In this document: positions 1-14,189 of the stretch, one piece after another | Numbering within the stretch: position 1 is the stretch's first letter | Layout: every line of letters starts with the position of its first letter | Source: an uncultured virus (IMG/VR IMGVR_UViG_3300031963_000086) | Lineage: Duplodnaviria; Heunggongvirae; Uroviricota; Caudoviricetes | IMG/VR virus record: IMGVR_UViG_3300031963_000086 | Length of the DNA stretch: 20,000 nucleotides | Reading direction: 5' to 3' (one strand) | Notes under the pieces: model-generated | Told to the model about the DNA's origin: nothing | The model's input: only the letters and a program-made list of their open reading frames with translations | The model's database searches: none | Made by a program: the position numbers and the translations under genes

Positions 1-80
1 CCAAACCACGCCTTAAATTCGCGTGTACGCACTAACTTGTATTGTTCGGGCGTTAAGTTACTTTCCTTTCCGTTGGGTGC
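1..80. repeat. Direct repeat of 1027-1106 (duplicated ART-module N-terminus)
   Basis: 65/80 identical by manual ungapped alignment; both copies begin CCAAACCACGCCTTAAATT and end CGTTGGGTGC. Confidence 0.9.
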
Positions 81-1361
81 AATTAAACCACCCTTATCAA
101 ATCTAATATCGGGGTTGTTCACGACCTTGTAAAAATCATTGTTGCCCTCACATATTTCATATCCGTTACTTTGTAGCCAATTTTTAATCATAGCAACATC
201 ATCCAAATTTGATTCTATTGAATCATCTTTTGAAAAAGATGCTTTTTGTGTAATATGACCAAACATTACATCGTGTCCATTTTCTATAGCAAAATCATTC
301 AGATACTTCAAAACCTTTTTACCAATACCTTTTAATCTTTGATTTTCGGAAATAAATATAGTTTGAATGTACAAAGGATTTTCGGATTTAAGCCCATACA
401 AATTTGCGTGTTTAGGTGTGGTTGGATATACTTTAAGTTCAATTTCACCTTGGTCTATTAAATTTTCTATTTCCCCACCTTTGGCAAACCGAATATCGGG
501 ATTGTTGCCATCAAAGGTTGTGTTACTACCATCGGCTAACTTGATTTCATTTGGAGATAGCGCAATAAACGATTTGCCTTTCCCCTCGTATTTGTTGTTG
601 TACACAAACCCGACCGAACTACCATATTTTGATTTAATGTAGTCCCTAATGATAGCATTATCTTCTCGACTATATAAAGATAAAAACCCTTTTTGTTTTG
701 CAACTTTTTCTTCAATAATGTTATCGGATATTAACTCATCAATATATCGTTGTGGATATTGCCATTCTCCCGCATCACTCATTTCAAATAAAACTCTTAT
801 GTTTAGGAAAAATGAATTGACGATTGATTTTCTTTTTGGCAAAACTCCTTTACTTTCTACTCTATTTTTTGCTTGTTCTTTCGTGCCAAAATGAAAACCT
901 AAATCCGCTTTTTGGTAATCAAATATATCAAAGTTGGTTTCAACAATAGCCCCATGATGTACCACCAATGGCTCACCATTCTCATCCACTACCTTACTCG
1001 CATTTTTTGGGTCGTTTTCCCAATCGCCAAACCACGCCTTAAATTTGGGTGTGCGAACTAAATGCCATTGTTCGTGTGTTAGGTTACTTGGTTTCCCGTT
1101 GGGTGCTAAATGCTTTGACATATCACCACCTAAGTGCATTTTCTCAATGTTATCCAATCGGTCATAATAGTCGGGGAACTCTACCAAGTGGTCAAGTGCT
1201 ATTCGCCTTGCTTCGGCAACGCTCTCGGTGTGTTCAAGTTCGTGTTTAATACCCTTTTTTAATTGGTGCTTTAATTGCTCGGCATTCATATTGTGTAGTT
1301 TTGCTACTTGAGCCAAAGTCATGCCCTCGCTTTTGCCCCCTTTTAAGTATTTATTTACCAT
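1..1361 (-). CDS. Polyvalent protein, N-terminal 453 aa (runs off the left edge): DUF5661-like domain, ART-PolyVal-like ADP-ribosyltransferase, GNAT acetyltransferase-like domain, start of a second ART-like module
   Basis: Manual translation from the ATG at 1361 has no stop before the edge. Motifs: QLKKGIKHELEHTESVAEARRIALDHLVEFPDYYDRL (DUF5661-like); FKAWFGDWENDPKNASKVVDENGEPLVVHHG...GFHFG...SPNEIK...NTTFDGNNPDIRF (ART-PolyVal-like); YIQTIFISENQRLKGIGKKVL (GNAT acetyl-CoA motif A); then APNGKESNLTPEQYKLVRTREFKAWF again. Confidence 0.88.
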   Translation of the reverse strand, partial: MVNKYLKGGKSEGMTLAQVAKLHNMNAEQLKHQLKKGIKHELEHTESVAEARRIALDHLVEFPDYYDRLDNIEKMHLGGDMSKHLAPNGKPSNLTHEQWHLVRTPKFKAWFGDWENDPKNASKVVDENGEPLVVHHGAIVETNFDIFDYQKADLGFHFGTKEQAKNRVESKGVLPKRKSIVNSFFLNIRVLFEMSDAGEWQYPQRYIDELISDNIIEEKVAKQKGFLSLYSREDNAIIRDYIKSKYGSSVGFVYNNKYEGKGKSFIALSPNEIKLADGSNTTFDGNNPDIRFAKGGEIENLIDQGEIELKVYPTTPKHANLYGLKSENPLYIQTIFISENQRLKGIGKKVLKYLNDFAIENGHDVMFGHITQKASFSKDDSIESNLDDVAMIKNWLQSNGYEICEGNNDFYKVVNNPDIRFDKGGLIAPNGKESNLTPEQYKLVRTREFKAWF

Positions 1362-1947: not shown

Positions 1948-2715
1948 TTAGAAGAAACGCAATTTCTCGCCCCTCTCCTTAAAGTTGTATATTTCCTCCA
2001 ACAAAGTTAAGTAACCTTTCGTATCGGTGCAATCAACTAATTTAGTTTGTTGGTATTGCAACTTTGCGACAAGTTGTTTGAAGTCGAATTGACGATTTGA
2101 ATACAACTTGGAAAGCGCATTGATAAAAGACCTCCGCTTTACGCCACCATACATCGGTTCTATTTGTTTAACCCAACCCGCCACAACCGCACCTCTTCCT
2201 TTATTTGGCAAGGTCATTTTACCATCCATAATGTTTTGCGCTTTGTCACCACCCATGTTTGAAAGTAATTGTACGGAGTTTGTCATTCCCAATTTGTGTT
2301 CCTTGATAAAAGAACGCAAGAATAAATACTCTTCTTTGCCCATGTCGCAATAGCCATCTACATAGTCCTCCAATCTCCAATTTTTCATATTGGCGTTTAA
2401 CATTTGTACCTCGCGCAAACCATACCCAACCTTGAGTATGTAATGAATTGGCTTTTTGAGTTCTTTGCACACCTCAAATCGGTGTTGGCCATCAATAATC
2501 TCAAAGTTTTCATTCACCAAAATTGGATTGGTTTCGGTCAAATCCGTTTCGGCAATTGACTTTTTCAACCTCTCTTGGTGCATTTTGTTGAGTTGGCGGT
2601 TTCCTTGAATAAAAGAAAACCTTTCGTAGTTGGTGGTGCGGTAAACTTGGCTTACCACAACATCCCGCACTTGAGTACCTTCCGTTCTCATTGGTGCATC
2701 TTCTTGGTTTAACAT
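1948..2715 (-). CDS. ParB/Srx-like N-terminal domain protein
   Basis: GNRQLN...LKKSI...PILVNENFEIIDGQHRFEVCKEL, the ParB/Srx DGxHR motif. Confidence 0.8.
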   Translation of the reverse strand: MLNQEDAPMRTEGTQVRDVVVSQVYRTTNYERFSFIQGNRQLNKMHQERLKKSIAETDLTETNPILVNENFEIIDGQHRFEVCKELKKPIHYILKVGYGLREVQMLNANMKNWRLEDYVDGYCDMGKEEYLFLRSFIKEHKLGMTNSVQLLSNMGGDKAQNIMDGKMTLPNKGRGAVVAGWVKQIEPMYGGVKRRSFINALSKLYSNRQFDFKQLVAKLQYQQTKLVDCTDTKGYLTLLEEIYNFKERGEKLRFF

Positions 2716-2804: not shown

Positions 2805-2948
2805 TTATTCTATGGTCGCATTATAGAACGAATTGTACATTGGTCGCTTCTCTTTTATCTTTTCACAAGCCTCTTCGTAGGTATTGGCTTTTACCAAAAC
2901 CAAGTTGGTGGGGCTATCAACCCCACAACCTATTAAATAGTAGTTCAT
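2805..2948 (-). CDS. 47-aa hypothetical protein MNYYLIGCGVDSPTNLVLVKANTYEEACEKIKEKRPMYNSFYNATIE
   Basis: ATGA overlap with the GT4 stop. It contains a GC-rich hairpin (2904-2929) that could instead be a terminator. Confidence 0.5.
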   Translation of the reverse strand: MNYYLIGCGVDSPTNLVLVKANTYEEACEKIKEKRPMYNSFYNATIE

Positions 2949-4207
2949 AATTTGAGCAATCGTTTAATTGACAATTTCCATTGGTCGGCAATCTTATCCC
3001 AATTGTACTCCGCAAACTTATGCTCGTAATTTTTAATACTCACCTTACGCGTGGCACTATCTTTCCAAGCGTTTATCATTTGTTCGCAAACGCTTTTTGG
3101 GTGCAATACCAACCGCACATTCTCGGCATCTTCTATTTGAAAGTGAGGCACTAGGTCATTTACGATATAAACCAAATCGCCATTATCGGTTATCTCGGTC
3201 AAAGAGGTGTGGTTGCCACAAATAATTGGCAAACCTACGCTCATCGCTTCGGTGATGGTCAATCCCCACCCTTCGGCCGTGGTCGTAGACACGAAACAAT
3301 CCAAACAATTGTACACCTCATTCATCTCTTGAGTCGAATAGGAGTTGCTATTGTATTTGTCCTCTATCGGCAAAAACACATCCTTGCCAATTACCAATCC
3401 AAGTCGCTCACACGCTACATACACTTTAATGCCCGTTTTGTCGGAGTGATAACAATGCAAGTATAATCCAACTTTTGATGGTCGGTTGGGGGTTACGGGT
3501 TGGCTCTCAAACCATTGCTTAAATTCCGCAAACGCTAACAAGGTTGTACCGATGTCTTTGCGCGGTTGGTTCTTATTGATGTTTCCGAATACAAACATAT
3601 CTTGAGGGATGTCGTATTTGGCTCTCAATGATTGTTTATCAAACAATGGTTGAAACTCGTATCTATCCATTCCGTGCGGGATAATACCAATTTTCATTTT
3701 GCGGTTATTAACTTTTTGAAATGCTTTTTCCGCTTCCCTACGCCCATAATCGGTGTAAGTGAACACTTCATCCCATACATCCAAATCTTTGAAATATCGC
3801 GCAAAGGGTACGCTATCAATCGGGGTGTACATCAACATTTTGAACTCCTTTTGTTTTTGGAATTGCTTTTGTTGACGGACATGGCGTAAGATTGGCGACA
3901 TCGGCCCAAGTACGGGTACATCATTCATAGCCCACAATAGGTCGTAATCGCCCACTTGCAACATTTTTAACACACCATCGCGATAATAGTAATCCTCTTC
4001 GTTACGCGCAAACATACGCGGGTTAACGGCCATGATTTGCTCGTTATACACTTCGCTTTGGCGGTTTCCAAAATTCAAACACGCTACATCTACTTCTACG
4101 CCCACCCGCTTGAACCAAGGTGTCAATCTATCCATTACGTTGTGGGAAACAGTTCCGAAGCCCGTAGGACACATAAAGTCCATGTACGCTAATATCTTTT
4201 TTGTCAT
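2945..4207 (-). CDS. GT4 (GT-B fold) glycosyltransferase
   Basis: PTGFGTVS N-terminal loop, IIPHGMD, NKNQPRKD, and the GT4 E-x7-E motif AEGWGLTITEAMSVGLPII. Confidence 0.9.
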   Translation of the reverse strand: MTKKILAYMDFMCPTGFGTVSHNVMDRLTPWFKRVGVEVDVACLNFGNRQSEVYNEQIMAVNPRMFARNEEDYYYRDGVLKMLQVGDYDLLWAMNDVPVLGPMSPILRHVRQQKQFQKQKEFKMLMYTPIDSVPFARYFKDLDVWDEVFTYTDYGRREAEKAFQKVNNRKMKIGIIPHGMDRYEFQPLFDKQSLRAKYDIPQDMFVFGNINKNQPRKDIGTTLLAFAEFKQWFESQPVTPNRPSKVGLYLHCYHSDKTGIKVYVACERLGLVIGKDVFLPIEDKYNSNSYSTQEMNEVYNCLDCFVSTTTAEGWGLTITEAMSVGLPIICGNHTSLTEITDNGDLVYIVNDLVPHFQIEDAENVRLVLHPKSVCEQMINAWKDSATRKVSIKNYEHKFAEYNWDKIADQWKLSIKRLLKL

Positions 4208-4211
4208 ATGT

Positions 4212-5273
4212 CTATTGTAATATTGTATTGTAAATATTCTCTGCTACTGATTTCATCATCAAAGGAGGTACACTTCTTCCTAACCTTTCCCATTGTTGCG
4301 CATAATTCCCCGTCAATATGTAATCTTTGGGAAACGAGCATATCACTTTCAACTCATCAATCGTGAACCTATTTGTATCATCCGACTTCATTTTGCTGAT
4401 TTCCATGTCGGTTTTATCATCGTAAAAACCTTTCCGCTTTATTCGATAAACTCTTGTAGCACCTAATCCCCTTGTTAGTATTGTAAAAGAAACATCATCT
4501 AGTCCAAGCGTAGTTATTTGCCCCCATTTAGCAAACCCATCACTACATATCATTTTTTCAATTTCGCCTCCAAATGCCTTTCCCAAGGTATTAATTTCTT
4601 GATTGGGTTTCGGGAATGATATTTTCTTTTCTAGGTCATTCCTTACTCCAATAAATATTGTCCTTTCCCGCGATTGGGGAACATTGTAATTTTTGGCATT
4701 TAAAACCATAAAGCGAACATTGTAGCCACAATTTACAAGCGAGTGGTAAATGGTGCTATCTTGACTATCAAACATATCAAATTGGTCACTACCCAACAAC
4801 TTACTTGATGCCCCTTGGGTTAATCCCTTCACATTTTCAGCAACAAAAACTTTGGGTTGAATCTCTTTCAACAATCGTGCAAATTCAAAAAACAAGTCAT
4901 CTACCCTTTGCTCGGTGCTTGAGTATTTTTTCACTTGCCCCCACATTTTCTCTTTTTTACCCGCAGTTGAAAATGATGCGCATGGCGGTGAACCATCCAA
5001 TATATCCAACTCACCACGCTTTAATCCGATTTGGTTTAATATCATATCCCCCGTCAATTCACGAATGTCTTGTTTGAAAATATGAGTATCGGGATAGTTG
5101 GCTTGGTAGGTGTCTTGCGCTTCTTGTAAAAATTCATTAATCGCCAACACTTTGCCTCCCGCAAGTTTGTAACCCGTACTACTACCACCCGCCCCCGCGA
5201 ATAAACTAACGACATTGAATAACTCCTTTTGAGATTGTTCATGTACCAATCTCATATCGTAGTTCGTGTTCAT
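4212..5273 (-). CDS. C5 cytosine DNA methyltransferase homolog; predicted Cx-SAM-dependent DNA carboxymethyltransferase
   Basis: Motif I FAGAGG, IV GSPPCASFS, VI ENVKG, VIII PQSRERTIFIG and IX RFTIDELKVICSFP. Motif X reads GRSVPP instead of GNSV/GNAV. Family call is strong; the carboxymethyl activity is inferred. Confidence 0.9.
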   Translation of the reverse strand: MNTNYDMRLVHEQSQKELFNVVSLFAGAGGSSTGYKLAGGKVLAINEFLQEAQDTYQANYPDTHIFKQDIRELTGDMILNQIGLKRGELDILDGSPPCASFSTAGKKEKMWGQVKKYSSTEQRVDDLFFEFARLLKEIQPKVFVAENVKGLTQGASSKLLGSDQFDMFDSQDSTIYHSLVNCGYNVRFMVLNAKNYNVPQSRERTIFIGVRNDLEKKISFPKPNQEINTLGKAFGGEIEKMICSDGFAKWGQITTLGLDDVSFTILTRGLGATRVYRIKRKGFYDDKTDMEISKMKSDDTNRFTIDELKVICSFPKDYILTGNYAQQWERLGRSVPPLMMKSVAENIYNTILQ

Positions 5274-5518
5274 AATTCCGTTTGGATTTCTACTGAATCC
5301 GTGTGTATTCTTAAATAAAGAGATGTGCCGAACATTCCAAGGGTGTTGTTGTATTTCTTTTTTGTCAACTCGAATGCCTCCTTGTTTTCATAGGGCTTAT
5401 TGGTTGCATCTTTAACGATGCCAATACGCTTTGATAATTTCCTACGCTCGTTTAATAATTGAATAATTTGGTCATCAATTTCACTCAATTCGTTTCGCAA
5501 TATTTCTAAACTTTCCAT
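5270..5518 (-). CDS. aroQ: Chorismate mutase type II (AroQ)
   Basis: LEILRNELSEIDDQIIQLLNERRKLSKRIGIVK...IHTDSVEIQ. R8, R25, K36, S75 and Q79 match E. coli chorismate mutase R11, R28, K39, S84 and Q88. Confidence 0.85.
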   Translation of the reverse strand: MESLEILRNELSEIDDQIIQLLNERRKLSKRIGIVKDATNKPYENKEAFELTKKKYNNTLGMFGTSLYLRIHTDSVEIQTEL

Positions 5519-5519
5519 A

Positions 5520-6170
5520 TTATTTAACCGCTAAGTAACCAATGAAATTAAAAGATTGCCAAAAGGTCGTAACCTTTTCAAAACCCGCATCTTTGAGCAT
5601 CTTTAAAATCTCGACATTTGTATTTGGCTTCATGATTGAGCGCAAATCTTTTTCTTTTGAATAAATTGTCGATGGAGAAAAGTTATTCTCTTTATAATCG
5701 TAGTGACTGAATGAAAAAACCTCTTGAAACCACCCATGCTTTTGATAGATTTTTTCGCATAAAAACAATGCCCCGCCATCTACAAGCCCTTCATAAATGG
5801 TTTCCAAATAATTACTCCTTTCACTCTTTTTAAGAAATTGCATGGTGAAAATACTATACACTATACACGCATCATCTATATCCCAAAAATTTGTATTCAA
5901 ATCTTCGCTAAGAAAAGATATTGGTTCATCATTGTCCTTTGGTAGCAAGTTTATACTTAGGTCAATACCTACCTTGGAGTTTTCATAAGGTAATGACTTC
6001 AATAATTTGCCCGTAGAACAACCAAGGTCATAAATTGTGGTGTCTTCCACTACAAAATAAGAACTCATACTATGAATCATATTCCATAGAATATCGTAGT
6101 TAGGTATAGATTGGAGAATGTGTTGGTCGAAATCTTGAATTGTATCAAAACTGAATTTTTCGTTTGTCAT
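5520..6170 (-). CDS. cmoA: CmoA-like carboxy-S-adenosylmethionine synthase
   Basis: Colinear with E. coli CmoA as recalled: FSFD...FDQHILQSIPNY, YDLGCSTG, FTMQFLKKSER, IYEGLVDGGALFLCEK, AGFEKVTTFWQSFNFIGYLAVK. Confidence 0.85.
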   Translation of the reverse strand: MTNEKFSFDTIQDFDQHILQSIPNYDILWNMIHSMSSYFVVEDTTIYDLGCSTGKLLKSLPYENSKVGIDLSINLLPKDNDEPISFLSEDLNTNFWDIDDACIVYSIFTMQFLKKSERSNYLETIYEGLVDGGALFLCEKIYQKHGWFQEVFSFSHYDYKENNFSPSTIYSKEKDLRSIMKPNTNVEILKMLKDAGFEKVTTFWQSFNFIGYLAVK

Positions 6171-6190: not shown

Positions 6191-6490
6191 TTACAACATT
6201 TGGATTTTGGGTTTTGCTTCCGCGTTCTCTAGCGGAAACTTTTGGGCTTGAACTTCGCAAGTTTGAATGAACACCAACTTGCCATCGTTTTCCAACGCAA
6301 TCAACGCGCGGGTGCAATGTGTTGTGCAATGCTCGTAGACGGGTACAAAATCTCCCGTTAGTTGGTTTGGTATAATGTTAGCACCTACTTTATGGCACTT
6401 GCAAGGCTGACCATCCTTGAGTAACATTTTACCTCCTTTGATTGTGTTGTACTCTCCTATTGAGTATTTATGAATATATTCTAGTGACAT
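6191..6490 (-). CDS. Hypothetical Cys/His-containing protein; first gene of the cmoA transcript
   Basis: 99-aa ORF directly behind a promoter; contains CKCH and HCTTHC motifs. Confidence 0.65.
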   Translation of the reverse strand: MSLEYIHKYSIGEYNTIKGGKMLLKDGQPCKCHKVGANIIPNQLTGDFVPVYEHCTTHCTRALIALENDGKLVFIQTCEVQAQKFPLENAEAKPKIQML

Positions 6491-6525: not shown

Positions 6526-7242
6526 CTATTGCACCAAATAAATATCCCCATATTTATCCTCACCCCAATAATGAACCCAATCGGGGTATTGAGTAGGTAG
6601 CAATTCCGCAATCCTTGGTGTGTTCAAAGCACTTGCAATAGCAAGGGGCGCACTTTGGTTTCCCATAAACCTATTGCTTTTTGCAATGTATGTAAACCAA
6701 TCCTCCATCGTTTGTGGAACGACCAATTGACACATATCCTTTAGTGGGAATAAATCGTAATCGTGTTGGCTTCCAAGGAATATGGTTTTTTCGTGTTGTT
6801 GAATTTGCATCAAATAAGAATCGCGAATATGGTCGCTCATCGGGTTTTTGTATCTCCGATTAATGACAAGGGTGTCATTCCAATCACGAACTTCATTGTA
6901 AGTCATCCAAGCACCACTTACGGGTTCATCATTCGGGAAAAAGGTAAGCGACATTATTTCAGTCCAACACCTCCGATACAAATGCGGACTTGTTCTAAAC
7001 AAAGTCGTATTGTACTCGATAGGTTGACCTTCCCAAATTTCAAATCCTTCATTCCCCTTTTGTTGACGAATTATCGGCCTTAACTCCTTTCGGGTATTGT
7101 GAACACCATTCTCAAAAGGCTCTACAACTTCGGTAATGTAAATCTTTGACCTTTGCCCGTGGCGAACCCACAAATGGTTCGCCACATACATAGAGTGAAT
7201 CAAATCACCCAACTTGCCACTTACTAAAATGCTACTTGCCAT
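6526..7242 (-). CDS. GT9-like glycosyltransferase (heptosyltransferase-like fold)
   Basis: N-terminal SGKLGDLIHSM and C-terminal YIAKSNRFMGNQSAPLAIASALNTPRI, resembling the GT9 motif FIGNDSGPMHLAAALGTP. Start placed at MASS (7242) rather than 7293. Confidence 0.65.
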   Translation of the reverse strand: MASSILVSGKLGDLIHSMYVANHLWVRHGQRSKIYITEVVEPFENGVHNTRKELRPIIRQQKGNEGFEIWEGQPIEYNTTLFRTSPHLYRRCWTEIMSLTFFPNDEPVSGAWMTYNEVRDWNDTLVINRRYKNPMSDHIRDSYLMQIQQHEKTIFLGSQHDYDLFPLKDMCQLVVPQTMEDWFTYIAKSNRFMGNQSAPLAIASALNTPRIAELLPTQYPDWVHYWGEDKYGDIYLVQ

Positions 7243-7483
7243 ACATTTTACTATCGCCTTGCTTGTAAAGTTTTTGTTGCTCTCCTTTGGCAATGGCGTT
7301 CATCTCTTCGTCAATGGCTTGGATTAAGTCATTCCGTTGTTGGTTGGCAATGTTTGTGGTGCGCGTGGCCTTCGCAATATCGGCATCCGTTGCTTTGGGG
7401 TCGCGCTTTATATCCTCGGCCATCCAAATCTTGATGTTTACGATGGATAGTTGGTCAATCAAGTTTCCTATGGTCACTTTCAT
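7232..7483 (-). CDS. DUF4254/DUF6165-like helical protein
   Basis: IGNLIDQLSIVNIKIWMAEDIKRD...NQQRNDLIQAIDE resembles DUF4254, which is usually found beside GT9 genes. Confidence 0.6.
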   Translation of the reverse strand: MKVTIGNLIDQLSIVNIKIWMAEDIKRDPKATDADIAKATRTTNIANQQRNDLIQAIDEEMNAIAKGEQQKLYKQGDSKMYGK

Positions 7484-8715
7484 TTCAAGTCCTCCTTGGT
7501 GTAAATTCTAAATTGTGGGCAAGGAACGATGAACGCGCCTCCTTTTTCTAAATACTCGCGCTCTCGTTCCACGAACTCCGAAATAAAGTGCCAAGGCAAT
7601 ACCAACACATAGTCGGGTTGTGCCTCTCGCATCTCCTTTTCGCTTTTGATGACAATATTGCTTCCAATGGTGCGTAACCCCCACTTATCGGGATTGCGTT
7701 CCGCTATGGCTTCAATTTTGGTATTATCCAAATCAAAATATTGCAACAAAGTATTGCCTTTTGTACTAGCACCATATCCCCAAACGCTTTTTCCATCTCG
7801 GTTTGCTTTATCAATAAAATCCGTAGTTTTCATTCTTAACATAGCAACATTGTTGGCAAAATCATTCCACACGGGTAAGTTGTCATAGTGATGTTCGTTG
7901 TTGAATAACGCTTGGATATTCATCGCCCACACATCGCGTAATGGCGCACTACCAAAACTATTCATATCCGCGGTTTTCTTAACCGCATAAATACGAATTG
8001 ACCCACCATTCACATCATTCAACTCGGCATTTAAGACCTTCATGTTGGCGAGGTTCAAGATTCTTTGAACACTAGTCAAGTTGTGATAAGCCCAATGTTC
8101 GTGACAAATATTGTCGAACGCAAGTTGCTTCATCATAAGCGGGGTGTAAGAGAGTTGCAATACCCAAATACCATTTTCGTCAAGCACCTTTTCTACATCT
8201 TCGGCAAAAGTGAACGGGTCTTGCAAATCATAGAACATAGCAATGCTTGTAACCACATCCGCTTTTTTGGGGGCGTTCGCTTTTAACCACGCATCGTAAG
8301 TGAAATAATCTTGAACTATGCTATTTGCGTGATGCAATGCTTCCGCTATATACTTGTCTTCAATCGGGTCAATACCAACACGAAAAAACTTGCTCTCATC
8401 TACCCAAGATAAAAGAGTACCATCGTTACACGCGATGTCAAGCCACACATAGTTACTTCCCATCAATTTCTTATGGTCAAAAATGGAATCCACTACATCG
8501 CGTAGGGCTTCTCGCATAGATGCGTTTGTACCACTCTTGTACCAATATTTGCCCCACATTTCTTCTCCACTCGGTTGCTCGGTCAAAGTTGGGCAACCCA
8601 ACCTCTCATTCCAAACAAGGTCAAGTGAATACTTTTTTCGGGTCGCGTACTCCGCGGAACTATGCACAAAGTCGCTTGTGTACATACTCCCTAATTCTAT
8701 TAATTTATGGCTCAT
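7480..8715 (-). CDS. NDP-hexose C3-methyltransferase family (TcaB9/NovU/EryBIII-like)
   Basis: YWYKSG, LDIACNDGTLL, FDNICHEH, GGSIRIY, GYGASTKGNTLLQY, PDYVLVLPWHF...GGAFIVPCP. Confidence 0.88.
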   Translation of the reverse strand: MSHKLIELGSMYTSDFVHSSAEYATRKKYSLDLVWNERLGCPTLTEQPSGEEMWGKYWYKSGTNASMREALRDVVDSIFDHKKLMGSNYVWLDIACNDGTLLSWVDESKFFRVGIDPIEDKYIAEALHHANSIVQDYFTYDAWLKANAPKKADVVTSIAMFYDLQDPFTFAEDVEKVLDENGIWVLQLSYTPLMMKQLAFDNICHEHWAYHNLTSVQRILNLANMKVLNAELNDVNGGSIRIYAVKKTADMNSFGSAPLRDVWAMNIQALFNNEHHYDNLPVWNDFANNVAMLRMKTTDFIDKANRDGKSVWGYGASTKGNTLLQYFDLDNTKIEAIAERNPDKWGLRTIGSNIVIKSEKEMREAQPDYVLVLPWHFISEFVEREREYLEKGGAFIVPCPQFRIYTKEDLK

Positions 8716-9326
8716 TTCGTGTAAAAATCGTTAACCTCGTGTCGTCTAACCTTACGATAACCGAACAATGCAAGGTATTGCTCAATTTCGGGGTCGTTAA
8801 AATTATTCTCAATGCAAAACATTTTCACATTCCATTTTGGGATGTCAAAACCTTTCAACACATCCAACTCCGTGCCTTCGGTGTCAATTGAAATAAAGTC
8901 AATATGACTAACCCAATCAAAGTCCGCAATAATGCTATCCAAAGTCCTTTCGGGTACTTTTACGATATTCACTTGGGGATTTAAGAAAGCGTGGCTTTGC
9001 ATCAATCGTTGGTCAAGTTCCAATCCGCTAATAGCCGTTTGGTTTCCACCTTCTAGGGTTACTACTTTGAACTCCACCTCTTTGTTGTTGTATTGGCCGA
9101 CCGCGCAATGCACGGCATTGGCACGGGTTTGTTGTAACGATGGTATCATCGCGGGGTTCGCTTCTACGCAAATCGCCTTCCAACCATGTTGTTCAAAGTG
9201 ATAGGTGTTACTCATACCTATACCATCGGTTGCCCCAATGTCAATGCAAATACCCTTGTAGTCGGGTTCAAAGTGTTGGGCGATGAATACGTCTTCGCCA
9301 AATTGTGAATAGGAATGTATGCTCAT
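8712..9326 (-). CDS. FkbM family methyltransferase
   Basis: YSQFGED, IDIGATDG, GWKAICVEANP, IDFISIDTEGTELDVLKG. Confidence 0.9.
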   Translation of the reverse strand: MSIHSYSQFGEDVFIAQHFEPDYKGICIDIGATDGIGMSNTYHFEQHGWKAICVEANPAMIPSLQQTRANAVHCAVGQYNNKEVEFKVVTLEGGNQTAISGLELDQRLMQSHAFLNPQVNIVKVPERTLDSIIADFDWVSHIDFISIDTEGTELDVLKGFDIPKWNVKMFCIENNFNDPEIEQYLALFGYRKVRRHEVNDFYTK

Positions 9327-10240
9327 AGTGTCATTTTGTATATAAAGTCGTCAAATTTAGTTGTTGGTTGCCATCCAATTGTTTCTTTTGCTTTGGAGTA
9401 ATCCCCCCAAATGTTGTTTCTTTCCCCCAGTCGCACAAGTTGACTATCGGTTAAAACATATTTTTTCCAATCATATCCGTGCGGGGCAAATGCTTTTTCA
9501 AGCAAATCTTCTACCGAATAAGTAACCCCCGTAGCAAATATCAATTCGCTTGGCTCTCCTTGAACTTGGTCGTAAAACCCTTGTACAAAGTCGGGGGCAT
9601 ACCCCCAATCTCTTCGTGATGTTAATGCGCCTAATTTTAGCAATTCGCTTGTAGCCCCATTTCGGAGTTGCTTGACATAGTTGCATATTTTAGCGGGTAA
9701 GAAATGTAGCCCTCTACGCTCACACTCATGGTTGAATGATATAGCCGTGTAAAATTTGCCACCTTGCTCCCGCATATATCTCATCATCTTATCCACTTCG
9801 TTCTTTGCTTCGGCATAAGGAGTGTGGGGATTTCTCGGACTATTCTCGTTTAATTGTTGGTCTTTAATATTTCCAAATACTTCACTTGATGACGCTTGGA
9901 AAAACTTCCGATTAGTATAAAAACAAACCTCCATCAATTTGAAAACGGCCGAATGATTCACCACTTTCGTGTATTCGGGCAAACGCTCACTATCGGGAGA
10001 AAAAGTAACCCCCCCAAAGTTATAAACCTCGGTTGGTTGTTTGTTTATTACGAATTGCGCTATGGAATCCTTATTACTCAAATCAAATTTGTGTAACGTA
10101 AAATTCGGGTGAAACAAATTATCCACCCAACGCTTGTTGGATGCGTAAGTTCCGTGAACCATATACCCTTTTGATAGCAATAACTCACACATGAGTGAGC
10201 CATCCATACCACTTGCGCCTATTACTATTGCCGTTTTCAT
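9323..10240 (-). CDS. gmd: GDP-mannose 4,6-dehydratase-like protein
   Basis: GASGMDGS Rossmann motif, QASSSEVFG, PYAEAK (YxxxK), FNHECERRG, LGALTSRRDWGYAPDFV. Confidence 0.85.
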   Translation of the reverse strand: MKTAIVIGASGMDGSLMCELLLSKGYMVHGTYASNKRWVDNLFHPNFTLHKFDLSNKDSIAQFVINKQPTEVYNFGGVTFSPDSERLPEYTKVVNHSAVFKLMEVCFYTNRKFFQASSSEVFGNIKDQQLNENSPRNPHTPYAEAKNEVDKMMRYMREQGGKFYTAISFNHECERRGLHFLPAKICNYVKQLRNGATSELLKLGALTSRRDWGYAPDFVQGFYDQVQGEPSELIFATGVTYSVEDLLEKAFAPHGYDWKKYVLTDSQLVRLGERNNIWGDYSKAKETIGWQPTTKFDDFIYKMTL

Positions 10241-11093: not shown

Positions 11094-11476
11094 AAGTCCC
11101 ATGCGCTAATTGTTTTGGTGTGGTTGCTTTGGAAATGTCCGCAATTCAAACACTTGCCACCCGTTGTATTTAATCCATCCCCTACAAAGTGTCCGCATGG
11201 GGTATTTGCATTTGAATCAAGATTTACCGATGAAGGATAGCGATTCGCAATCACCGACCCAACTTTAGGCTTTTGTGTTTTAGTGAACACTCTACCAAAA
11301 GTCACATTGTCCTTAACAACAATATCCTTGTGTGTAAATTGCCAAATTTGGCCATTGTTTAGAATGATGGTGTACATAGTATCGGTTTCGTGTCCGTACT
11401 CGGTTACTAGCCATATTACGCCATCCCCTTGGGGTGTTGTGACATCAACTCGGTTATGTGGTTCGTGTATGTGCAT
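11090..11476 (-). CDS. Hypothetical phage protein with C-terminal Cys/His cluster
   Basis: TAATG-coupled; PCGHF...CLNCGH. Confidence 0.65.
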   Translation of the reverse strand: MHIHEPHNRVDVTTPQGDGVIWLVTEYGHETDTMYTIILNNGQIWQFTHKDIVVKDNVTFGRVFTKTQKPKVGSVIANRYPSSVNLDSNANTPCGHFVGDGLNTTGGKCLNCGHFQSNHTKTISAWDL

Positions 11477-12144
11477 TAGAATAATTTTTGTTGTGGGCTT
11501 GGTGGAATAAATAAATTTTTTGCATTATTACGAACCCCCGTATATTCGGTTGCTTTCACTTTTTCCACAGAAAAAGCAAACCTCCAAATACTTTTACAAT
11601 CTATTTCGTCTATGAGTTCGATTTTTCTCCAATGACATAATCCAAATAGACCAATCTTCTCAATTATTTCCTCTTTACTTGGATTGTGTGTTCCGTAATA
11701 GCAAGTTAAATGCGTTTGGGTTATTCCGTTAAGAATATTAACATATGGTTTGGGCATAGTAATAAACAAAAACCCCTTATCTATCAGTAAAAAAATGTCG
11801 GGGAAAAACCTATTTGGGAATCCGTATGGGTCTAAATCAATTATAGTGAATTTTTTTTTGTCACTAATCAACCTATGGTATTCTAAAAAACTATCGCCCG
11901 TTTTTAAGTGTTTTTTATCGTATGCGCTAACACACCCATAGGTTTCATACAATTTTGTTAGATTTCCTTGTCCCGAAAACAATTCAAGTATTTTAATATT
12001 ATTTTTATTTGTTTCATCAAAATTCAATAACACTCGTTTCACTTGCTTCGTTTTTTCGTTAGGATGATGCACTTCATTAGAATTTTCTAATTGTTTCTTT
12101 CTAACCACATCGTGTCTTAACGCTCTATATGTTTTCGGTGTCAT
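11476..12144 (-). CDS. SAM-dependent amino-methyltransferase-like protein (DLDPYG motif)
   Basis: ILELFSGQG (motif I), SAYDKK, GDS and FTIIDLDPYGFP (a Trm1/DPPY-like motif IV). Confidence 0.6.
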   Translation of the reverse strand: MTPKTYRALRHDVVRKKQLENSNEVHHPNEKTKQVKRVLLNFDETNKNNIKILELFSGQGNLTKLYETYGCVSAYDKKHLKTGDSFLEYHRLISDKKKFTIIDLDPYGFPNRFFPDIFLLIDKGFLFITMPKPYVNILNGITQTHLTCYYGTHNPSKEEIIEKIGLFGLCHWRKIELIDEIDCKSIWRFAFSVEKVKATEYTGVRNNAKNLFIPPSPQQKLF

Positions 12145-13359: not shown

Positions 13360-13566
13360 TTATAGAAGAGAAATACATATATATGCGGATAAAAGCGTAT
13401 AATATCCGACCAATATAGGAGTTACATATTTGGCCATATAAAACTCTTCATCACTTTCTAATGCCACTCTTTCAAATGTTATTTCAAACCATATTGTCCA
13501 AATTATATAGCCCAACAACAATACGGGTAAAGCGAAAGTGATAAATATTAGTCGGAGGTTTTTCAT
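13360..13566 (-). CDS. Small two-TM membrane protein
   Basis: ATGA overlap with the GT2 stop; two hydrophobic segments. Confidence 0.55.
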   Translation of the reverse strand: MKNLRLIFITFALPVLLLGYIIWTIWFEITFERVALESDEEFYMAKYVTPILVGYYTLLSAYICISLL

Positions 13567-14189
13567 CGGTTGTAAGGGGTCTTGAAAGTTTCTTGACTTG
13601 GCGCACCACCCCACTTGTCAATAAAGAAATTTCTATTCCTATCAAAGTTTTGGTTCAATGAGGGGTCACGCGCGATGGTTTGAGAATTTCTAAACACTTC
13701 GGGATTAAAGAAAGGTGAATTTTCACGCTTCAACCCTTGCAACCTCATTCGGTAGCAATAGTCATTGTCCTCAAAGTATGCGGGGAAAAATTGCTCATCA
13801 AATTTGCCTACACTTTCCCAAGTAGTCAATGGAATAACAAACAAACACCAAGTACCCAAGCCTACATAAAAATCGTTGGGATTGGCATCAATATGCTCTT
13901 CTATTTCATCGGCCGTTTTGCGCCAAATAACATCGTCATTCAATAACGCGACATGGGTATATCCTTTGGCAAACAAAGTTTTGCAAAGCAAGTTCCACGA
14001 ACCACTTACGCCAATGTTTTGTGGCATTGTCATAACTCTTTGGTTCGATGCGGTAAGGTTGATTGTTTGGTGTCCATTATCTACAATATAGACGTGACGA
14101 CCATACCAAGTTTCTTTGTAAATCTCCAATGCTTCTTGTAGTAAATCGGCCCTATTTATGGTTGGGATTCCAAGTGCTATCATTGCCAT
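13563..14189 (-). CDS. GT2 (GT-A fold) glycosyltransferase
   Basis: IPTINRADLL, YIVDNG, NIGVSGSWN, LLNDD (DxD-like), VGKFDEQFFPAYFEDNDYCYR. Confidence 0.88.
   Translation of the reverse strand: MAMIALGIPTINRADLLQEALEIYKETWYGRHVYIVDNGHQTINLTASNQRVMTMPQNIGVSGSWNLLCKTLFAKGYTHVALLNDDVIWRKTADEIEEHIDANPNDFYVGLGTWCLFVIPLTTWESVGKFDEQFFPAYFEDNDYCYRMRLQGLKRENSPFFNPEVFRNSQTIARDPSLNQNFDRNRNFFIDKWGGAPSQETFKTPYNR

Follow-up and report, generated by a model that had tools for sequence, protein, structure and literature searches.

What does an arginine do in a phage DNA cytosine methyltransferase homolog, at the position where C5-cytosine methyltransferases (C5-MTases) carry a conserved asparagine? The question is raised by a minus-strand gene in a 20,000-nucleotide stretch of DNA from an uncultured virus of the Caudoviricetes (IMG/VR record IMGVR_UViG_3300031963_000086), hereafter the window. 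A sequence-only reading had proposed that this arginine switches the cofactor from S-adenosylmethionine (SAM) toward carboxy-S-adenosylmethionine (Cx-SAM). We find that the 353-aa product of the gene, P0001, is very probably a CmoX-type enzyme with a C5-cytosine methyltransferase fold, one that would take Cx-SAM in place of SAM and write 5-carboxymethylcytosine (5cxmC). As regards the reaction itself, the choice of cofactor and the modified base in phage DNA, we rely on homology to the experimentally and structurally characterised SpCmoX. The features on which this assignment turns are the following.

4212..5273, minus strand: putative CmoX-type DNA cytosine C5-carboxymethyltransferase homolog, 353 aa, P0001 (PF00145, 8yf3_A, AlphaFold/Foldseek)
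4277-4275, minus strand: Arg333 codon AGA (sequence reading, HMMER alignment to 8yf3, structural overlay of the SpCmoX paper)
4980..4991, minus strand: SPPC catalytic-cysteine motif S95-P96-P97-C98 (translation; S95-C98 of SpCmoX are numbered alike; invariant columns in alignment A1)

The cofactor pocket of the CmoX-like enzyme

The arginine codon was re-read from both strands and from the translation, and it is where the sequence-only reading had placed it. Positions 4275-4277 are tct on the plus strand and AGA on the minus strand, and minus-strand positions 4280-4263 read GGA AGA AGT GTA CCT CCT, giving G332-R333-S334-V335-P336-P337. The range singled out in that reading, 4266-4292, corresponds to W328 to P336 of the 353-aa open reading frame (ORF), which is the longest one over it. 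P0001 matches the Pfam family PF00145 (C-5 cytosine DNA methylase) with E 2.6e-53 from residue 19 to 348, covering profile positions 1-323 of 324, and also matches TIGR00675 (NCBIfam). Since the PF00145 match runs nearly from end to end, GRSVPP is the C-terminal conserved motif of the family, motif X.

Arg333 is not a chance substitution but a clade-wide property. Homologs with E <= 1e-10 number 7,478, one of them a 99% identical copy of P0001 on a 96-kb contig. In the set formed by P0001 and the best 120 of these homologs, 120 of the 121 proteins have G-R-[ASM]-V, and SPPC is likewise present in 120/121; the lone motif X miss, P0045, arises because a C-terminal extension put the motif outside the search range. 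In alignment A1, which holds 28 sequences, Arg333, Cys98, Glu146, Arg202 and Arg204 are all invariant. Single-protein scans returned few relatives, one viral locus and six metagenome loci, one of which is the window itself, and none of 50,697 phage records was matched by the window in a megablast search.

We compared P0001 with all PDB sequences by HMMER, which gave 43 sequences at E <= 1e-5. The best is 8yf3_A, matched over residues 4-352 with E 2.1e-69 and about 40% identity, and the second best is M.HaeIII (E 2.5e-20). Entry 8YF3 is SpCmoX, a DNA cytosine C5-carboxymethyltransferase of Synechococcus phage S-B43, in complex with Cx-SAM (Yang et al., Nat Commun 2025;17:281, PMC12783734). In the HMMER alignment, QQWERLGRSVPPLMMKSVAENIY of P0001 stands opposite QQTERVGRMVPPLMMKAIAENIY of 8yf3_A, so that R333 lies opposite the R of G-R-M-V-P-P, which is Arg350 when residues are counted backward from 369, where the alignment ends. 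In SpCmoX, Arg350 contacts the carboxymethyl group of Cx-SAM and stands in place of Asn304 of M.HhaI (PMC12783734); the proposal that P0001 has an arginine at the conserved-asparagine position thus holds. Moreover, F25, E47, F48, D69 and C98 of P0001 are identical to the Cx-SAM and catalytic contacts of SpCmoX, and carry the same numbers in both proteins because the N-terminal alignment is ungapped. The AlphaFold model of P0001, built from a 28-sequence alignment, points to the same relative. Indeed, the model (pLDDT confidence score 83.1, predicted template-modelling score 0.87) has 8yf3 as its top Foldseek match (E 1.5e-28, template-modelling scores 0.72/0.76), followed by HaeIII and HhaI with E 3e-20 to 5e-19.

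The functional consequences of Arg350 have been established by enzyme assays on SpCmoX. The wild-type enzyme accepts Cx-SAM as its sole cofactor and does not accept SAM, and its product is 5cxmC on double-stranded DNA, with 5-carboxymethyl-dC at m/z 286.1 in the assay; the R350N variant accepts neither cofactor (PMC12783734). The authors note that the Arg350 arrangement ‘strikingly mirrors’ that of the engineered M.MpeI N374K (PMC12783734), whose lysine is proposed to engage the Cx-SAM carboxylate in a salt bridge, according to excerpts of PMC12015181. The same excerpts bear out N374K as the Cx-SAM precedent that the sequence-only reading had invoked. Its further claim, that R333 corresponds to N374 of M.MpeI, stands by way of SpCmoX Arg350 and the authors’ comparison, and falls short as a direct alignment: M.MpeI is absent from the 43 PDB matches with E <= 1e-5 and from the best 50 Foldseek matches listed, and a 51-residue C-terminal query against the PDB returned 8yf3 plus one spurious match and no M.MpeI. 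The link is therefore transitive, because M.MpeI itself could not be aligned. Finally, the idea of a natural equivalent of M.MpeI N374K is supported by the homology to SpCmoX, and an enzyme of this kind was published in December 2025.

The CmoA operon and its association with Arg-type enzymes

The gene of P0001 lies in a row of minus-strand genes, in the order orf99, CmoA, chorismate mutase, CmoX, GT4 and ParB-like.

6191-6490, minus strand: orf99, first in the listed gene order, before CmoA
5520..6170, minus strand: CmoA-like carboxy-SAM synthase, 216 aa (TIGR00740, phrog_4752, PDB CmoA/YecO)
5270..5518, minus strand: AroQ-type chorismate mutase-like protein, 82 aa (PF01817, PDB chorismate mutases)
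2945..4207, minus strand: glycosyltransferase of the GT4 type, 420 aa (PF00534, phrog_2170; context gene)
1948..2715, minus strand: ParB-like protein, 255 aa, of a type frequently found with CmoX (phrog_12305)

The chorismate mutase gene starts 1 nt past the CmoA stop and overlaps the start of CmoX by 4 nt, and the GT4 start is 4 nt past the CmoX stop. With this spacing, CmoA, chorismate mutase and CmoX are translationally coupled. The CmoA-like protein matches phrog_4752 (E 7e-53), is 36.8% identical to the assayed SpCmoA, and its PDB matches at E <= 1e-3 are only three CmoA/YecO sequences (4iwn, 4gek and 1im8). The chorismate mutase-like protein matches PF01817 with E 3.5e-10 and 40.4 bits (cut-off 27), and its best PDB matches are chorismate mutases (1ybz, E 1.7e-5). 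GT4 matches PF00534 (E 2e-10), phrog_2170 (E 3e-31) and, weakly and below cut-off, PF20706 (GT4-conflict, E 9e-5), and the ParB-like protein matches phrog_12305 (E 3e-33), with no Pfam match at E <= 0.05.

Altogether, these genes would form a short pathway. The chorismate mutase (5270-5518) would convert host chorismate to prephenate, from which CmoA (5520-6170) would make Cx-SAM with SAM. CmoX would flip out a cytosine, Cys98 would attack its C6, and the resulting C5 carbanion would take the carboxymethyl group from Cx-SAM, with Arg333 holding the carboxylate; beta-elimination would then release the enzyme. In this way, 5cxmC would be written into the double-stranded phage DNA after replication.

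The sequence-only reading had proposed a test of whether methyltransferases with the G-R motif co-occur with cmoA, and they do. Across its three refuting conditions (alignment, cofactor use as known for SpCmoX, and enrichment beside cmoA), nothing refutes the cofactor-switch reading. An IMG/VR profile scan with A1 gave 518 confirmed relatives, the best 80 of which (median locus 11.8 kb) make up the Arg-type set; the control set consists of the best 80 of 561 relatives (median locus 11.7 kb) from an IMG/VR scan with A2, built from the five nearest non-Arg phage methyltransferases. The arginine is present in 79/80 Arg-type loci, the remaining one (L035) ending before the motif. A CmoA homolog is found in 69 of these 80 loci, and in 52 of the 69 it lies within 300 bp; a ligase homolog is found in 30/80 and a ParB-like ORF in 40/80. 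In the control clade, the motif is GMSVPP in 77/80 loci and unreadable in three, and neither CmoA nor a ligase is found in any of the 80. Fisher’s exact test for CmoA with Arg-type versus control loci gives p ~1e-33, a value that overstates the evidence because the loci are not independent. The nearest non-Arg clade (L099-L178, together with L004, L005, L008 and L010) has methionine at the Arg333 position.

The same association is seen in a smaller comparison. CmoA lies within 6 kb in 5/5 Arg-type loci (S-B43, Mcat8, TurkishDelight, PaBG and IMG/VR locus L001) and in 0/5 non-Arg loci (CL131 with GNCV; tooticki, FpV9, PD491P1 and BMBtp14, all with GMSV). A search of whole records found a CmoA-family match in the Arg-type phages Erwinia pEa_SNUABM_5 and Moraxella Mcat8, and none in the non-Arg FpV9, BMBtp14 and CL131. 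The Erwinia enzyme is Arg-type (GRVCVP), with CmoA about 17 kb off. In this jumbo phage (L184, 29887-33228), the methyltransferase is a 704-aa frame with an insert of about 350 aa that has intein-like ends (C...HN|C) at the catalytic PPC cysteine, and the ligase, like CmoA, lies about 17 kb from it.

Several points weigh against the assignment of P0001 as a CmoX that works with its neighbour CmoA. Its target-recognition region (about residues 220-300) aligns poorly with 8yf3_A, and the two enzymes share no more than about 40% identity. For the CmoA-like protein, the score stays under the equivalog cut-off of TIGR00740 (E 2.2e-30, 106.1 bits, cut-off 193.3), as it does for NF011995 (84.9 bits, cut-off 285). 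The chorismate mutase covers only positions 1-49 of the 80 of PF01817, and catalysis by it is not assured. The locus counts are not phylogenetically independent, with many near-duplicate loci such as L013, L015 and L090, and the control clade has methionine rather than the canonical asparagine. Finally, 11/80 Arg-type loci show no CmoA in the locus DNA, and a CmoA gene next door is thus not obligatory; phages of this kind could rely on the Cx-SAM of the host, as was the case for SpCmoX in Escherichia coli.

In some CmoX loci, a TET/JBP oxygenase (PF12851, E 1.6e-25 and 2.3e-9) and an amino acid:DNA transferase (PF18724, E 3.6e-21) are found within 4 kb (L022 1172-2041, L021 797-1921, L041 4491-5285), which hints at mixed or alternative routes of hypermodification.

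Fate of the modified base and competing explanations

If P0001 does use Cx-SAM, is 5cxmC the final base? It might be a transient intermediate to which the adjacent glycosyltransferase(s), or an enzyme that escaped recognition, add a further group, an explanation that we consider unlikely. In S-B43, the final base is a glycine amide and free 5cxmC was not seen (PMC12783734). In the window, GT4 begins 4 nt after CmoX. As to amidation, no CmoY-type amide ligase was found in 25.8 kb, which are covered by the window together with L092, a locus identical to it over 15,273 bases that extends it 5.8 kb leftward: phmmer with four ligase queries found none among the window ORFs, and Pfam scans of the window and of the extra 5.8 kb of L092 gave no PF00733. 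The cassette sits in a sugar-gene island.

6526-10240 and 13563-14189: sugar-gene island, kept in the sister phage

The island encodes a weak GT9-like protein of 255 aa, a sugar C-methyltransferase (PF08484, E 7e-41), an FkbM methyltransferase, a GDP-mannose-4,6-dehydratase-like enzyme (PF16363, E 5e-69) and a GT2 glycosyltransferase with a weak match, below cut-off, to the TET-associated glycosyltransferase family (TAGT, E 0.0019).

The sister phage is the IMG/VR contig behind locus L098 (G001; 72.6 kb, CheckV completeness 86%). On either side of the cassette site it is 76-83% identical to the window at the nucleotide level, with the gene order fully conserved. Window positions 6159..4209, which are exactly CmoA-chorismate mutase-CmoX, are swapped in it for two ORFs (L098 6771-8004). 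The first encodes a ParB-C-like protein of 137 aa and the second a 292-aa protein that matches PF20691 (TAGT) above cut-off (E 7e-26) and phrog_842 (‘beta-glucosyl-HMC-alpha-glucosyltransferase’, E 1e-62). The end of the 292-aa ORF overlaps the GT4 start by 4 nt; both modules, the CmoX cassette and TAGT, are thus translationally coupled to the same GT4 gene. This swap shows the cassette site to be a putative exchange place for DNA-modification modules, and the surrounding sugar genes are therefore candidates for DNA glycosylation, with the virion or the host surface as alternative targets.

In the sister contig there is no match to the C5-MTase family (PF00145) or to the thymidylate-synthase family (PF00303), and a Pfam scan of its 64 ORFs likewise gave none. 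The search for TET/JBP (PF12851) was blank too, which is uninformative since the PF12851 control matched no genome. These searches were aimed at a maker of hydroxymethyl bases, which would explain the TAGT of the sister phage, and gave none. Since the sister phage keeps the island without a C5-MTase match, the island does not depend on CmoX, and this speaks against a further decoration of 5cxmC by these genes. The idea that GT4 is a general companion of CmoX was also rejected, as 0/80 Arg-type loci hold a homolog of the window GT4. Glycosyltransferases near CmoX were seen in one other phage only, represented by the same sequence in L013, L015 and L090. There, CmoX has neither CmoA nor a ligase in 20 kb (L013 9278-16816), and it is followed within 2-4.5 kb by GT1_4, GT2, a PLOD-type glycosyltransferase, Methyltransf_24 and a ParB-fused N6/N4 DNA methylase, a gene set that stands just before the terminase. 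As support for CmoX-linked glycosylation, this gene set is weak at best.

A more specific version would make CmoA-chorismate mutase-CmoX an interchangeable module at a hot-swap site in a DNA-glycosylation island. The carboxymethyl handle would then receive a sugar rather than an amide, through GT4 and the deoxysugar and methyl-sugar genes nearby. We regard this as improbable, because the island persists without CmoX and no GT4 homolog is found near CmoX in the 80 loci. If true, it would yield a sugar-bearing 5cxmC derivative, a kind of base not yet described; a literature search covering 2024 onward found no paper that connects Cx-SAM in bacteriophages with a glycosyltransferase. The window cassette, without a ligase found and in a sugar-gene island, is well suited to the question whether the carboxyl handle serves a chemistry other than amidation.

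The sister phage also encodes a sulfotransferase and an adenosine phosphosulfate (APS)-kinase-like protein (L181 15739-17404) and, elsewhere in its genome, two GDSL lipases and a RelA/SpoT-domain protein. Auxiliary genes for carbohydrates and nucleotides abound in this lineage.

P0001 could also be an ordinary SAM-dependent 5-methylcytosine methyltransferase, in which the motif X arginine is structural or binds DNA and has nothing to do with the cofactor. The full C5-MTase motif set and the strong PF00145 match would fit such an enzyme, and CpG methyltransferases engineered to carry a lysine retain methylation with SAM, as stated in the excerpts of PMC12015181. This explanation is nevertheless very improbable: wild-type SpCmoX does not accept SAM (PMC12783734), CmoA accompanies 69/80 loci of the Arg clade versus 0/80 of the sister clade, and in the window CmoA and chorismate mutase are translationally coupled to the methyltransferase homolog. 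Least credible of all is that CmoA and the chorismate mutase act in RNA, through a cmo5U-type modification of the wobble base in tRNAs of the phage or its host, or drain host SAM, with the methyltransferase homolog acting on a target other than DNA cytosine, since the classical role of CmoA in tRNA cmo5U synthesis (PMC12783734) and the open question of SAM depletion raised by Yang et al. (PMC12783734) are met by the lack of a CmoB-like carboxymethyltransferase in Pfam/NCBIfam scans of the window ORFs and the additional 5.8 kb of L092, by the DNA C5-MTase fold, PPC cysteine, ENV and RxR motifs of the partner enzyme, and by the modification of double-stranded DNA by SpCmoX (PMC12783734).

Known systems and the supply of prephenate

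With P0001 read as a CmoX-type enzyme, its closest counterpart is the CmoA-CmoX-CmoY system of S-B43. Both have the C5-MTase fold, SPPC, an arginine at the Arg350 position and identical F25, E47, F48, D69 and C98, and in both there is a CmoA gene, which lies in the operon in the window, and a ParB-like gene nearby. They differ in that the CmoY amide ligase was not found within the 25.8 kb, and that the window has a chorismate mutase between CmoA and CmoX and a GT4 that is translationally coupled downstream. SpCmoX of S-B43 recognises GC. Using SPPC and Arg350 as search criteria, Yang et al. collected 5,615 CmoX candidates, with 4,257 CmoA, 2,251 ligase and 1,660 ParBc sequences on their contigs (PMC12783734). 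P0001 carries every sequence-level mark of CmoX and is therefore a further member of this known family, sharing about 40% of its residues with the type enzyme. Among the matches listed in a literature search on the name CmoX, only Yang et al. use it in the carboxymethyltransferase sense.

The engineered M.MpeI N374K and M.MedI N377K share with P0001 a basic side chain that replaces the cofactor-pocket asparagine and pairs with the Cx-SAM carboxylate (PMC12783734, and excerpts of PMC12015181). However, they carry a lysine, are engineered and CpG-specific and still use SAM, whereas the arginine of the window enzyme is natural and clade-wide. M.HhaI and M.HaeIII share the fold and catalytic motifs of P0001 but carry the asparagine, use SAM and have no CmoA partner. 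In the HMMER alignment R333 stands opposite the asparagine of HaeIII G-N-A-V-P, a stretch that is not significant when taken alone (i-Evalue 1.7e3). Finally, the nearest non-Arg phage clade (GMSVPP; Flavobacterium phage FpV9, Bacillus phage BMBtp14) is 31-35% identical to P0001 over the full length and has the same SPPC, but it differs by the methionine at the Arg333 position and by the lack of CmoA or ligase in its 80 loci.

This kind of system is already published. What the sequence-only reading had deduced is a cofactor switch for which enzyme assays and a crystal structure were published in December 2025; its agreement with them is a useful check on the method and not a discovery. The remaining interest of the window lies in the add-on for prephenate supply and in the position of the cassette in a sugar-gene island.

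Yang et al. nowhere use the word ‘chorismate’ in their main text, and their Discussion leaves the supply of prephenate open (PMC12783734). No paper connecting chorismate mutase with the CmoA of phages came up in literature searches. A tblastn search with the window chorismate mutase against phage records gave no match, which is weak evidence of rarity for so short a query. Among the relatives, L017 and L020 each carry a stand-alone CM_2 gene with CmoA on one side and CmoX on the other, and their chorismate mutases match PF01817 positions 1-80 and 2-80; a CM_2 gene is found just upstream of CmoX in L074 and L078. A fusion of 3-deoxy-D-arabino-heptulosonate 7-phosphate (DAHP) synthase with chorismate mutase is encoded directly upstream of CmoX in L025 (3833-4822) and upstream of the ligase and CmoX in L026 (25-969). 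This suggests that some phages push the whole shikimate branch toward prephenate. Phage chorismate mutases and DAHP synthase-chorismate mutase fusions bear on the source of prephenate for a genome-wide carboxymethylation.

Away from the cassette, the open-ended ORF at the left edge of the window (3-1361, continued in L092 13913-19369) encodes the N-terminal part of a polyvalent protein of 1818 aa, in which DUF5661 is combined with three ART-PolyVal (ADP-ribosyltransferase) stretches; an AAA ATPase is encoded further on. An ORF of 222 aa at 11476-12144 has a weak match, far below cut-off (E 0.002-0.009), to TRM1-like N2,N2-dimethylguanosine tRNA methyltransferases, and could encode another nucleic-acid methyltransferase.

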